Virus record (IMG/VR): IMGVR_UViG_3300027301_000003
Span: 1 to 64,000 of that record
Direction: 5' to 3' (one strand)
Source: a virus
DNA: 64,000 nt
Below the pieces are notes generated by a model. That model saw only the letters and a list, made by a program, of their open reading frames with translations. It had not been told where the DNA came from and made no database searches. The position numbers were made by a program, and so were the translations under genes. Shown one piece after another: positions 42 through 12,273 of the stretch (position 1 is the stretch's first letter; each line of letters starts with the position of its first letter).

Positions 42-75
42 GATTTAATCCTGATTGATTATCGGTTAATATTAA

Positions 76-115
76 CCCCATAATACCCTAGAATATAATC
101 TAAGATATTATGAGA
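76..115 (-). promoter_or_regulatory. 17-bp intergenic RNA hairpin, RNase III-site-like
   Basis: Minus strand TCTCATAATATCTTAGA / TCTAGGGTATTATGGGG pairs fully with G.U. Confidence 0.55.
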
Positions 116-120
116 GAATA

Positions 121-342
121 TTATTGTTTTGAATAATCCCTTAGTGCTTTAATATATTCTCGCTTATTGGGTTTATTATCTATATTCCCTTTCCATGCTA
201 CGACAATAATACCATTTGATTTTGTACCCTGATATATTCCCTTATTATCTTTTGTACCCGCATATACATGTTGTCCGGGTTGAATATATCGGATTAATTC
301 ATTAGGGATATTCCAGATATTAAATGCTTGAATATATTTCAT
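121..342 (-). CDS. hypothetical pre-early protein, 73 aa
   Basis: ORF with GGAG RBS, co-oriented with neighbours. Confidence 0.75.
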   Translation of the reverse strand: MKYIQAFNIWNIPNELIRYIQPGQHVYAGTKDNKGIYQGTKSNGIIVVAWKGNIDNKPNKREYIKALRDYSKQ

Positions 343-1262: not shown

Positions 1263-1526
1263 TTTGAAACCTTTAGTTTGTGAGTTTTGGGGTAATGTAT
1301 ACTTTAATTTGCATACATTATAGAAAACTCTCAATTTTTAAAGAACTGAGTACTTTTGTTTCTAGTACTCTAGGTGTGCCCTATCGCTTCACCATGTAAT
1401 TGATTATACAGATATTTCCGTTGTTTTTCTGCAACAATGCAAATATTTTTATAGGGATAAACCCTATGTAAACTTTGGTTTCTCATTTTGTGCTTTATCT
1501 TATAAATAATGCACGCGCACGCGAAG

Positions 1527-1543
1527 AGCAAAAATCGTGCCAG
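1527..1543 (-). promoter_or_regulatory. sigma54 (RpoN) -24/-12 motif
   Basis: CTGGCACGATTTTTGCT matches consensus YTGGCACGRNNNTTGCW exactly. Confidence 0.7.
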
Positions 1544-1652
1544 TATTACACTGATAAAATGAATACTGTATAAAAAACCATGCCCCTAGAATCGATTTTA
1601 AGGCTGTTTTTAGCCGTTTTCCTTGTCTCTGGTACTACCCCATTAGAAAAAG

Positions 1653-1782
1653 TTGTCCACACCACTAGTGCTAGTTGTCCACATTTTGACTCTTATATAA
1701 GACTGATAACCTGTGCATAAGTATGGCATGAATCCTGCTATCCTGTGCATAACTTTTCACCCTGTGGACAACCTGTGGACAA
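1653..1782. promoter_or_regulatory. cluster of six DnaA-box-like 9-mers
   Basis: TTGTCCACA (+) at 1653 and 1675; TTATGCACA (-) at 1712 and 1744; TTGTCCACA (-) at 1763 and 1774. Confidence 0.7.
1724..1739 (+). promoter_or_regulatory. second sigma54-like -24/-12 motif
   Basis: TGGCATGAATCCTGCT, GG-N10-GC spacing correct. Confidence 0.5.
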
Positions 1783-1785
1783 CTC

Positions 1786-1957
1786 AAATATATCAGTCTA
1801 TGCTTATATACGGATATTCTTATATAAGTCAACCCTTATATAAGTAAACGCTTATATAACCCTTCGCTTATATAATGAATTGCTTATATAAGTCAACCCT
1901 TATATAATTGTTCGCTTATATAAGTAAACGCTTATATAATGACTGACTGATATATTT
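1786..1957. repeat. array of nine CTTATATA(A) palindromic cores at exact 16-bp period, bracketed by a 13-bp inverted repeat
   Basis: Cores at 1803, 1819, 1835, 1851, 1867, 1883, 1899, 1915, 1931; AAATATATCAGTC (1786-1798) / GACTGATATATTT (1945-1957). Confidence 0.9.
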
Positions 1958-1959
1958 TG

Positions 1960-2072
1960 TGACTGTAGAGTCATAATTTGAACTCTCCGGTCACTTTACG
2001 ACTGAACCGTCTAGTTTCTGACTGAACGGTCTAGTCGGCGACTGAACGGTATAGTAAGTGACTGCTCGGTCG
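1960..2072. repeat. ~20-bp-period array of imperfect palindromes GACTG-NN-CGGTC
   Basis: GACTGAACCGTCTAGT at 2000, GACTGAACGGTCTAGT at 2020, GACTGAACGGTATAGT at 2040, GACTGCTCGGTC at 2060; degenerate units at 1961 and 1981. Confidence 0.8.
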
Positions 2073-2117
2073 GCGCAGCCGGATTAACTTTAGGTCTTTC
2101 GCTTGAGAATTACCAAG

Positions 2118-2200
2118 GCGGGTTTTTAGAAAAATTAGGCAAGCGGGTTTTTGGGTAAAAATTCCAAGTAAACCTAAAAGCGGGTTTTCAAAATAAAAAG
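2118..2200. repeat. three GCGGGTTTT units with interspersed A/T tracts
   Basis: Copies at 2118, 2143, 2180. Confidence 0.6.
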
Positions 2201-2201
2201 C

Positions 2202-2232
2202 AAAAAAAAAACCCGAGAAATTAATCTCGGGT
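2202..2232 (-). terminator. intrinsic terminator ending the leftward early transcripts
   Basis: ACCCGAGA..TCTCGGGT stem followed by a T9 run on the minus strand. Confidence 0.85.
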
Positions 2233-2254
2233 AAATACTTCATCACTCTCTCTC

Positions 2255-2677
2255 TCACTTCACCAATATATAACCTTTCTTGTAACTTCCAACTCGCATA
2301 TTCATGTAGTACGCACAATGGAAATAGTCGCTTTGACTATCTGATTCATCCCAATGGTCAACAAGCATGATAGCCTTGGCTTTCTCCATGTACTCCAGAG
2401 CTTTACCGCTGAATTGAGTATCCAGATAGTAATGATTGATCTGAATGCCTTGCTCAAGCTTTACCCAAGCAATAGTCTGCTCAACATCACGATGGATGCG
2501 TTTACTTGCAATTGTCTCGCAGTAGTTATTCAGAAAGTCAATGCTACCTTCTGCAACGGTAAGATTCAAGCACAAACCACCTTTACCGCTGAGTGTACTC
2601 TTTACACCGTACTCTTTATTGAGTGCTTTGAGAGCAGTACGAGCCTTGGTGATAACTTCTTCAGATACGTAAGCCAT
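2255..2677 (-). CDS. conserved phage early protein, LPD29-like C-terminus (DxSDSQSDYFH)
   Basis: ORF with AAGGA RBS; motif recognition. Confidence 0.7.
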   Translation of the reverse strand: MAYVSEEVITKARTALKALNKEYGVKSTLSGKGGLCLNLTVAEGSIDFLNNYCETIASKRIHRDVEQTIAWVKLEQGIQINHYYLDTQFSGKALEYMEKAKAIMLVDHWDESDSQSDYFHCAYYMNMRVGSYKKGYILVK

Positions 2678-9955: not shown

Positions 9956-10273
9956 TCATTCTGTTGGTTCTGCATAGTGTTCCTTTAAATGCTGTTGAAG
10001 TATACTGTCGGTTGCAACTGACAACCTGAACGCAGTATAGCACAACTTTTCACCTTCTGTATTGAACATGCGTGAAATTTTCATCTGTTTCACTTTCATT
10101 GTTCCAAGACCTCGAAGCTTTACATCCGTACCTTCAGCAAGTAATACCTGAATATTACCCACTAAGTGATTCAGCACATCTTCTACTTCGTATTGATAGT
10201 AGCCAGAGGACTTAGCTACCATTTCAATCAGTTGTTTGTACTTTTTTGACTTACGTTTTTGTTTATCACCCAA
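9956..10273 (-). CDS. HU/IHF-like DNA-binding protein
   Basis: LIEMVAKSSG...L.EG.DVKLRGLGTMKV pattern. Confidence 0.7.
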   Translation of the reverse strand: MGDKQKRKSKKYKQLIEMVAKSSGYYQYEVEDVLNHLVGNIQVLLAEGTDVKLRGLGTMKVKQMKISRMFNTEGEKLCYTAFRLSVATDSILQQHLKEHYAEPTE

Positions 10274-11134: not shown

Positions 11135-11702
11135 CAATAACCTTTCTGTGTTGATCTGCTGAGTAAATATCTTCATGTTGCATAAAAGCAACTACTTCGT
11201 CTTCTGTGATGAACTTGTGCTCTCCGTATAGATTATATGCGGAATCTAAGCCTACGTCAAGCATTTTTCCACGATAATCTTTAAAATTACCATGAGAATG
11301 ACCATGTAGATGCCATGAACCATGACTTTGACGATGCCACGATGCAATAGGGAAGTGAAATAGTACTGTAGGAATATCCTGCAGCTTAATTTCCTTGTAA
11401 TCATACCATGCTTGAATCAAGTTATCTTTTACAAGTTGATCTAGGTGCTCTCTACGATCATGATTACCCTTGATGAAAATCTTTTGACCGTTTAGCTGCT
11501 TAGTAAACTTTGCAATATCATCGTAATTTTTAGCAAAGGAATAGTCACCTAATGAGTAAACAACGTCACCTTTAGTGACTTGACTATTCCACAAATGCAC
11601 CAACCATTCATCATGATTTTCTTGAGTTGTATCTACGCTTCTATTTGTAAATTCAACAATTCTTTTGTGTGCCATATGTAGGTCACTCGTAAAAATTCGC
11701 AT
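11121..11702 (-). CDS. calcineurin-like metallophosphoesterase
   Basis: SDLH, LGD, GNHD, HGHSH motifs. Confidence 0.9.
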   Translation of the reverse strand: MRIFTSDLHMAHKRIVEFTNRSVDTTQENHDEWLVHLWNSQVTKGDVVYSLGDYSFAKNYDDIAKFTKQLNGQKIFIKGNHDRREHLDQLVKDNLIQAWYDYKEIKLQDIPTVLFHFPIASWHRQSHGSWHLHGHSHGNFKDYRGKMLDVGLDSAYNLYGEHKFITEDEVVAFMQHEDIYSADQHRKVIDAKD

Positions 11703-12273
11703 AATTTGCTCCATTTTGATTACATTTATCAATGAAATATTTCCTGCATTCACTAGCAAGAATCAGTGCCAACTCTTTACCATATTTACTTATTGGAAAA
11801 TGAAAGGTTATTGGTTTTCCAGATGGAAATTCCCTGTAAGATGCAGAGTATGCATACAACACATCATCTATGTTTAACTCCGAAACTCCTGTAAAACCTG
11901 ATTTATTGTTTTCTTGTAATTTTTTACCCGTGTGACTCGAACATTTTCTCATGTTTTCTGATTGATGCACTACTTCAAGATTTTCTAAAAGATTATTAAA
12001 AGGATTGTTATCAATATGATTAATAACTAAAGCATCATCGTACTCGCTATCATACATAGCACATAAAATTCTGTGAACTTTGTAAAGTTTTCCTTGATAT
12101 CGCACATCCCATGTTTTAGCTTTCAATTTATTTTCATCACTCCAAGCCTTGGAACCAGCAACATCTCCACAATTCTTTTTACCACATTTTACTAGCCAAC
12201 GTAAACCGGATGGTGATTCTGGATCATAATAAAAAATTTTATTCCACTCTATATCTGCATAATTTATCTTCAT
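11683..12273 (-). CDS. HNH homing endonuclease with AP2-like C-terminus
   Basis: VHRI...INHIDNNPFNN..NL; NKSGFTGV. Confidence 0.85.
   Translation of the reverse strand: MKINYADIEWNKIFYYDPESPSGLRWLVKCGKKNCGDVAGSKAWSDENKLKAKTWDVRYQGKLYKVHRILCAMYDSEYDDALVINHIDNNPFNNLLENLEVVHQSENMRKCSSHTGKKLQENNKSGFTGVSELNIDDVLYAYSASYREFPSGKPITFHFPISKYGKELALILASECRKYFIDKCNQNGANYANFYE

Follow-up and report, generated by a model that had tools for sequence, protein, structure and literature searches.

We examined a 64-kb stretch of viral DNA (64,000 nucleotides, hereafter the window), the start of a 74,422-bp IMG/VR contig from a siphovirus resembling Limnohabitans phage DC31. At window 1500-2235 lies a segment of ~0.75 kb, here called the hub, which is the largest non-coding gap, poor in open reading frames (ORFs), of the genome. 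Putative sites for the host proteins DnaA and sigma54 are clustered in it next to several repeat arrays, and these sites are conserved across phage lineages and also turn over between them. We tentatively favour the interpretation that the hub is a replication-origin-type nucleoprotein assembly site, a candidate lytic origin activated by sigma54 transcription and/or by DnaA, at which phage replication would start.

Read from left to right, the hub contains a leftward sigma54-type site, a cluster of DnaA boxes that encloses a palindrome and a rightward sigma54-type site, a 16-bp-period array, a 20-bp-period array, T/A-tract units and a leftward terminator (Table 1). Every element listed by a first-pass annotation of this DNA was thus recovered, and in the order that it gave. 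That annotation had also called the segment gene-free, which is confirmed: no reading frame stays open through the hub core in 13 related sequences, and a search of the hub against Rfam returned chance-level matches only. With stops in every frame among the relatives, a small gene in the core was ruled out. Within the window, the hub is the only tandem-repeat locus that scores at least 50.

Six of the 11 matches to TTRTNCACA in the 64 kb lie within 130 bp (1653-1782), where ~0.02 would be expected per such span. All six fit the box consensus TTWTNCACA (two as TTATGCACA, four as TTGTCCACA), and thus form a set of multiple 9-mers as in oriC-type origins. They follow each other at 22, 37, 32, 19 and 11 bp, the last three intervals separating the reverse boxes, and inverted arms at the boxes reach 11-16 nt at most. 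The six boxes converge on a ~28-bp A+T-rich centre that carries the invariant palindrome TCTTATATAAGA. By analogy with R1 and the unwinding element of E. coli oriC, both sets of boxes may be aimed at this centre. A 13-mer-type unwinding element was not recognised in the hub.

The geometry of this core is well preserved. Position, orientation and spacing of the boxes are kept in 12 contigs with substitutions only at permitted box positions, and the perfect box TTATCCACA occupies the same positions in DC31 and other relatives. The 21-mer CTCTTATATAAGACTGATAAC recurs exactly in 11 IMG/VR stretches (10 contigs), in DC31 and in one contig binned into a metagenome-assembled genome (MAG), and its flanks are conserved as well. 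DnaA domain IV was not found in the phage, which has no dnaA or dnaN, and host DnaA would accordingly be the protein that reads the boxes; at the consensus level the site type matches the host protein, and we regard the boxes as putative binding sites. The invariant palindrome probably marks a DNA-binding protein, possibly one of Comamonadaceae hosts. A small phage protein (phrog_21585) was considered as its universal binder and ruled out, being absent from loci L011, L013 and L009 (loci are given by L numbers throughout).

The core had no match among PLSDB plasmids, and the exact core word gave 13 hits in a collection of species-representative bacterial genomes (185,579 species). Eleven of these fell in a single unrelated repeat of Treponema and related gut MAGs, which resembles an insertion-sequence transposase, one was a chance hit, and the last was a short, phage-like, MAG-binned contig that carries the full hub. 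A copied host oriC was thereby ruled out at the level of exact words.

The hub has two sigma54-type sites. The leftward site, P_left, agrees exactly with TGGCAC-N5-TTGC (GG at -24, GC at -12), and the rightward site, P_right, differs from it by one to two bases; no match to TGGCAY-N5-YTGC other than these two occurs in the window, the expected number being 0.45. P_left is kept, with a varying spacer, in DC31, L004/L016, L006, L007, L012, L049 and L054. The TGGCA and TTGC parts of P_right are kept around a drifting 5-nt spacer in 10 of 13 aligned rows, a count that takes in L007 (AGGCA, GG kept); L013 reads TGGCACGATAGTTGCT. Neither sigma54 nor a sigma54 activator domain (PF00158) is encoded by the phage genome, so that these sites, like the DnaA boxes, would need host proteins as readers. 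Judging from their sequence, sigma54 holoenzyme would bind and transcribe from both P_left and P_right. The rightward sites, including the tandem arrays of relatives described below, have no downstream ORF and face non-coding DNA, and each core-bearing lineage has one or more sigma54-type sites directed at the arrays. The recurrence of such an array-directed, gene-less site in every core lineage fits transcriptional activation of an origin. On the other side, a sigma70 extended -10 element (TGTATAAT) lies at window 1400-1420 (-), downstream of P_left and ~140 nt upstream of the first left-hand gene, which suggests that the left-hand gene unit could be under dual sigma70/sigma54 control.

The same sites could belong to a sigma54 enhancer-promoter control region, an interpretation that we consider rather unlikely. 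In that case an activator would use the 20-bp dyads, and perhaps the palindromes, as enhancer sites for both divergent promoters. Transcription to the left would cover the small AT-rich genes and might reach the packaging/late operon, that to the right would yield a non-coding or antisense RNA, and the DnaA boxes would supply an input of host growth state. The consensus-level sites, with -24 and -12 conserved around a drifting spacer and present in 5-8 copies in L055/L057, are in line with this proposal, as are the 20-bp array of L049/L054, which abuts the upstream side of P_left like tandem activator sites, and the heading of the leftward unit toward an HNH gene, a tRNA and the gene for the large terminase subunit (TerL). 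However, besides the missing activator domain and sigma factor, P_right and the tandem sigma54 arrays face non-coding DNA, against the early operon; the gene-less rightward promoters and the DnaA cluster are left unexplained. Moreover, the arrays of L011-type contigs lie downstream of the promoter and not upstream, and the sigma70 element near 1400 (-) already serves the left genes.

The repeat arrays contribute to the resemblance of the hub to iteron origins. The 20-bp units stand at exact 20-bp spacing over 1999-2071, with 5-7 units in relatives, and thus have the length (17-22 bp) and the helical phase of iteron repeats; the DnaA boxes lie 160-220 bp away, as a box cluster beside iterons. 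This array, of GACTG type, is the most widespread one (DC31, L038, L041, L044, L045, L049, L053 and L054). It takes the form GTGACTGnnCAGTAT in L009, L011, L013 and L014, where the layout is one of 20-bp CAGTCACAAA repeats with DnaA boxes. The word CTTATATAA of the 16-bp array has 15 strand-matches in the window against 1.4 expected, all except one in the hub. Its copy number varies (3-4 units in DC31, 7 in L016, none in L012) and so does its sequence: L005 has at least 6 units of GGTTATATAAGTGAAC, L006 a 16-bp variant and L007 an 8-bp variant, and TTATATAA-type 16-bp arrays exist in several versions among the loci downstream of the 140-aa gene that adjoins the hub. Between DC31 and the window, the arrays differ by whole units: a gap in the 16-bp array spans 94 bp, about the length of six units, and there is one extra 20-bp unit. 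A unit related to the T/A-tract units, (A/G)GGTTTTT, is repeated in DC31, L006, L007, L012 and L055.

Table 1. Features of the hub and its right-hand neighbour (window coordinates).
Feature	Position	Strand	Description
Conserved left block	1500..1625	.	GCACGCGCACGCG run, ATACTGTAT palindrome, TTTAAGGC-N-TAGCC motif
P_left, sigma54-type -24/-12 site	1528..1542	-	TGGCACGATTTTTGC; faces small AT-rich genes to the left
Forward DnaA boxes (two)	1653-1661, 1675-1683	+	TTGTCCACA, 22 bp apart
21-mer	1690..1710	.	CTCTTATATAAGACTGATAAC; contains palindrome TCTTATATAAGA at 1691-1702
Reverse DnaA boxes (four)	1712, 1744, 1763, 1774 (span 1712..1782)	-	TTATGCACA at 1712 and 1744; TTGTCCACA at 1763 and 1774
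P_right, sigma54-type site	1724..1738	+	TGGCATGAATCCTGC; flanked by DnaA boxes on both sides, directed into the arrays
16-bp-period array	1786..1957	.	Palindromic CTTATATAA(G) units; 8 exact at exact 16-bp period (1819-1939), plus degenerate end units
20-bp-period array	1940..2071	.	Dyad-like GACTGAACGGTCTAGT units, 4-5 copies, four of them consecutive
T/A-tract units (three)	2108..2196	.	CAAG-GCGGGTTTTT-nG-AAAAATT, 25- and 37-bp spacing; GCGGGTTTT(T/C) at 2115-2196
Intrinsic terminator	2211..2232	-	8-bp stem, then T10 run; ends the leftward early operon before the hub
140-aa gene (phrog_10415, no known function)	2255..2677	-	Last gene of the early operon; 196 homologues, syntenic with the hub

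The hub is insulated on its right side. As the first-pass annotation had claimed, a strong terminator shields it from early transcription: the terminator lies on the minus strand (2232-2211), so that the leftward early operon is stopped ahead of the hub. In the terminator stem, CCCGAGA/TCTCGGG here corresponds to CCTGAGA/TCTCAGG in DC31, a compensatory change (C-G to T-A). At the other edge, the left block is 89.7% identical to that of DC31 without gaps and the hub core 83.4%; both values equal or exceed what is found in the flanking coding DNA (73-89%). The DC31 counterpart of window 1500-2235 lies at 20.0-20.8 kb of that genome. The left block is present in inverted orientation in L048/L050. 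It contains a weak hairpin with a T-run at 1602-1622; a role of the hairpin (1602-1615) as terminator of a small RNA was ruled out, its stem not being maintained in relatives, and since these show no compensatory changes the element reads as a DNA motif and not as RNA.

All together, the case for an origin rests on several features. The hub has the grammar of iteron origins, in that clustered DnaA boxes are combined with 20-bp repeats in helical phase, a block of A+T-rich repeats and bent T/A tracts; it is the sole tandem-repeat locus and the largest ORF-poor gap of the genome; the order of its sites and arrays persists to L058; and the core geometry is conserved. In the window phage, a terminator insulates it. 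A further reason is that an HU/IHF-family protein is encoded by this phage, by the two complete window-type relatives searched (the L007 and L012 records) and by Curvibacter phage P26059A. In our phage this predicted DNA-bending protein is encoded at window 9956-10273 (-) (PF00216, E 1e-9). It was not found in the L011 and L013 records, by which it was ruled out as a universal binder of the hub.

In the mechanism that we propose, host DnaA would occupy the six phased boxes around the A+T-rich palindrome centre, and P_right would fire rightward into the A+T-rich 16-bp array and the helically phased 20-bp iteron array. Both arrays would be occupied by phage or host proteins, and the bends of the T/A tracts, possibly with the phage HU/IHF-like protein, would shape the complex, while the terminator would block early read-through into it. 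DnaA and/or the sigma54 transcript (through an R-loop, as at the T7, T4 and lambda origins) would then open the DNA, and the single-stranded DNA so exposed would be the start point for the gp4-type primase-helicase and PolA.

Several observations weigh against an origin. No Rep/O-type initiator or iteron-binding protein was found among the neighbours or the early genes, and the neighbours have no Pfam or PHROG function; an AlphaFold2 model of the 140-aa protein (predicted local distance difference test score 84) gave no informative fold match in Foldseek or VIA-align and showed no DNA-binding fold. To our knowledge, a gp4-type replisome with its own helicase-primase has no need for DnaA. The 16-bp array and the core centre are only moderately A+T-rich (~70% against 62% for the genome). 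GC and AT skew track the direction of transcription only and turn at 15.4 and 36.7 kb, not at the hub. In addition, L049 and L054 have no DnaA core and keep the 20-bp array, adjoining the upstream side of P_left, and the tandem amplification seen in other relatives (5-8 sigma54 sites, 7-9 DnaA boxes) is superfluous for an origin.

To follow the hub among relatives, 38 loci were fetched through the syntenic 140-aa gene; in ~20 contigs, the hub lies downstream of this gene. The central unit (DnaA box, TCTTATATAAGA, DnaA box) is present in more than 20 viral contigs, including DC31, P26059A and contigs of 33-39 kb, and the hub is conserved in at least three phage lineages. In the layout common to the aligned sequences, two forward boxes precede the palindrome, on whose other side a sigma54-type site stands between two reverse boxes, followed by one or two more reverse boxes. 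In L058, the most distant window-type carrier, the order of leftward sigma54 site, DnaA cluster with palindrome, rightward sigma54 site and arrays is kept, and the T-tract units and the terminator, both conserved among closer relatives, are missing. L011 and L013, contigs of 33-39 kb, encode endonuclease VII, TerL, portal and major head protein; their fetched loci share with the window phage only the primase-helicase (gp4), at 30% identity. P26059A, which has a family B polymerase, PolB (PMC5964084), keeps the central unit alone, which lies in an intergenic gap of 656 bp. The core thus occurs as a cassette alongside different replisomes: PolA/gp4 in the window phage, PolB in P26059A and a 30%-identical gp4 in L011. 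Its two isolated carriers, DC31 and P26059A, both have Comamonadaceae hosts. Sharing of the core across different replisomes, with both isolates being phages of this family, points to a step that depends on a host factor.

Around the core, the region downstream of the 140-aa gene is hypervariable. L048 and L050 carry 7-9 tandem DnaA boxes with a ~11-bp period, and L055 and L057 carry 5-8 tandem consensus sigma54 sites with a ~26-bp period beside an inverted core; 13 tandem copies in these two loci fit YTGGCAY-N5-TTGCT. TGTAAC repeats, a 25-bp unit in six copies and TTTCACGATGTGAAA palindromes, which in L057 lie 1273-1305 bp from the stop of the 140-aa gene, are other array types. The first-pass annotation had proposed a modular platform of binding-site arrays, which should show as module swapping in the syntenic region of related phages and as conservation of the motifs. 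Both are seen: arrays are exchanged, inverted, expanded or lost while core spacing is constant and the motifs are conserved, and the comparison thus supports such a platform.

Some relatives carry additional sites. In L009, a perfect LexA-type CTGT-N8-ACAG lies upstream of the core, and four direct ATGTTTCACG words, similar to parS half-sites, lie at ~+190 to +250 from the core word. L009, L011, L013 and L014 have a G-run, GGGGGGGAGGGG, after the 20-bp array (~+370 to +680 from the core word), and beyond it repeated CTTAATTGGGGACAGA words and consensus TTGACA-17-TATAAT promoters directed toward the endonuclease VII, TerL and portal genes. In L007/L047 (IMGVR_UViG_3300048573_000051), a second array of GCTTATATAAGC palindromes (49 bp, 4.6 copies) stands at the contig end, ~1.4 kb left of the core, and the circular assembly is broken within it.

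Expansion of single site types in L048/L050 and L055/L057 suggests selection on site number, and could indicate that the hub is a sponge, another function that the first-pass annotation had raised. Multiplying arrays would titrate DnaA, sigma54 holoenzyme and other host proteins and so shut down host initiation and sigma54 responses; that the phage keeps sites for host proteins although it brings its own replisome would be understandable on these grounds. Nevertheless, we hold a decoy to be improbable: strict spacing and orientation in the core suggest a defined complex, six boxes per genome are a modest sink, L049/L054 lack DnaA boxes altogether and, given the size of the footprint, sigma54 sites 26 bp apart could not all hold holoenzyme together.

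The genome around the hub is that of a DC31-like siphovirus. DC31 itself, the closest isolate (TerL identity 96.7%), is lytic, forms clear plaques, has a 203-nm tail and a circular assembly, and a G+C content of 37.6% against 59% for its host (PMC12195039). The window encodes a T7-type primase-helicase, PolA, ligases and ribonucleotide reductase, as well as a tape-measure protein, a J-like fibre (2,869 aa) and an E-type capsid protein; portal and TerL are encoded on the rest of the contig, past the window end. Genes run leftward from 2.2 to 15.7 kb (early), rightward from 15.9 to 35.8 kb (replication) and leftward from 74 down to 38 kb (virion). The contig has no end repeats. Compared with DC31 (L001:763-4345), ~3.6 kb of extra DC31 genes fall precisely at the junction of contig end and begin (74422/1), and the contig, 95% complete by the CheckV estimate, may lack a segment there. 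Left of the hub, ORFs match only PHROGs of unknown function and no family with a named function, and two small proteins encoded there are not demonstrably paralogous. This left block of small minus-strand genes (27% GC) contains two copies, 81-87% identical, of a ~70-nt intergenic element (window 55-123 and 920-985) with a GGTTAATATTAACC-type palindrome and, in the second copy, a single CTTATATAA word; the element may serve the block as promoter or terminator. Two HNH endonuclease genes are present (L037:9504-9986, that is genome 73504-73986, -, and window 11683-12273, -), one of which sits between the left-hand genes and tRNA-Glu with the terminase genes.

This neighbourhood raises the question of a packaging recognition region (pac/cos), with the repeats bound by the small terminase. 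In L011-type contigs, the genes for endonuclease VII, TerL and portal follow downstream of the hub; in the window phage, 3-4 kb separate the hub from the terminase genes when counted through the contig junction; and several contigs end in or near arrays. However, the terminase genes lie anywhere from ~1 kb to ~8 kb away, beyond inserted genes, packaging is not known to involve DnaA or sigma54 sites, and tandem repeats, together with a core common to possibly co-occurring phages, account for the contig breaks. We regard this explanation as highly improbable.

The first-pass annotation had also suggested an injection brake like that of phage T5. In one form of this proposal, membrane-bound DnaA would catch the boxes on entry and DNA transfer would pause until early proteins act, with the hub as stop signal or membrane anchor. 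Indeed, the composition recalls Repeat Region 3 of the T5 injection-stop signal (iss), an untranslated region with DnaA boxes, nine direct repeats and palindromes that is better conserved than the neighbouring ORFs (Davison, bioRxiv 10.1101/866236), and both regions are large and conserved in virulent siphoviruses with a replisome of their own. In T5, however, the boxes are paired 3 bp apart in the 131-bp inverted repeats IRD'/IRC', with a 52-bp spacer (bioRxiv 10.1101/866236), none of which is found in the hub, where the boxes converge on a palindrome at 22/32/11-bp spacing. No sign of a terminal repeat or a fixed end at the hub was found either: complete relatives are circular assemblies (the "direct terminal repeats" flagged in them proved to be assembly overlaps of 55, 63 and 127 bp), DC31 and P26059A are reported as circular contigs, and the hub position relative to contig ends varies. 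The left-hand genes match no named-function family and no A1/A2-type neighbours were recognised, T5 pre-early models, A1 and A2 included, not having been searched by name; sigma54 sites are not reported for T5; and for T5 itself, a function of DnaA at the iss has only been proposed. A brake of the T5 type is therefore not upheld, and we consider it very unlikely.

An origin remains our preferred interpretation, and it is with known origins that the hub is best compared. Theta origins with iterons and DnaA boxes (RK2 oriV, P1 oriR, F oriS, pSC101 ori) and lambda ori likewise place a DnaA cluster beside phased direct repeats, with an A+T-rich block and bends or an IHF-type architecture, lambda ori having DnaA-regulated transcriptional activation. 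A promoter from which transcription passes the origin belongs to this set as well, and P_right would be its counterpart in the hub. In contrast to these, the hub phage has no Rep/O-type initiator that we could find, a T7-type primase-helicase with PolA and a sigma54-type promoter, and its two or more different arrays are swapped between relatives, without similarity to PLSDB plasmids. The T7 primary origin consists of the tandem promoters 1.1A/1.1B and an AT-rich region, and T4 oriF and oriG of a middle promoter and an unwinding element. The hub shares with them promoters that lead into an A+T-rich non-coding region, a phage replisome and, in relatives, tandem promoters; it differs in that its promoters are of the host sigma54 type, which would need an ATP-dependent activator, and in the addition of DnaA boxes and iterons. 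Sites for host chromosome-associated regulators have a precedent in the lytic phage phi29, whose Spo0A boxes and parS/Spo0J sites couple its development to host state. Unlike in phi29, the hub sites are of DnaA and sigma54 type, concentrated instead of dispersed, and belong to phages of Gram-negative freshwater hosts.

In the literature searched, we found no description of a hub of DnaA boxes and sigma54 sites in such phages, nor of their tandem arrays; the DC31 paper nowhere mentions an origin or the hub region (PMC12195039), and the P26059A paper does not mention the hub region (PMC5964084). Tandem arrays of consensus sigma54 sites and DnaA boxes are unusual in phage DNA. A broader and quite speculative proposal, to which we give little credence at present, is that the hub mimics a chromosome module: an origin that needs host DnaA and is gated by sigma54, with parS-half-like and other host-factor arrays in some relatives, which would tie replication or persistence of otherwise lytic freshwater phages to the physiology of their slow-growing hosts (as a pseudolysogenic or carrier episome) and would move as a cassette between unrelated phages of one host family.

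The hub offers an independent comparison for the disputed role of the DnaA boxes at the T5 injection-stop site, and it could mark the hosts of uncultured phages. The presence of a 21-bp core with PolA, with PolB and with different virion modules indicates a non-coding cassette that is either exchanged or convergently kept. If the hub is indeed an origin or a master switch in this abundant group of freshwater phages, a lytic phage with a complete replisome would defer the initiation or timing of its replication to two host regulators, DnaA, which stands for replication capacity, and sigma54, which stands for nutrient and stress conditions.

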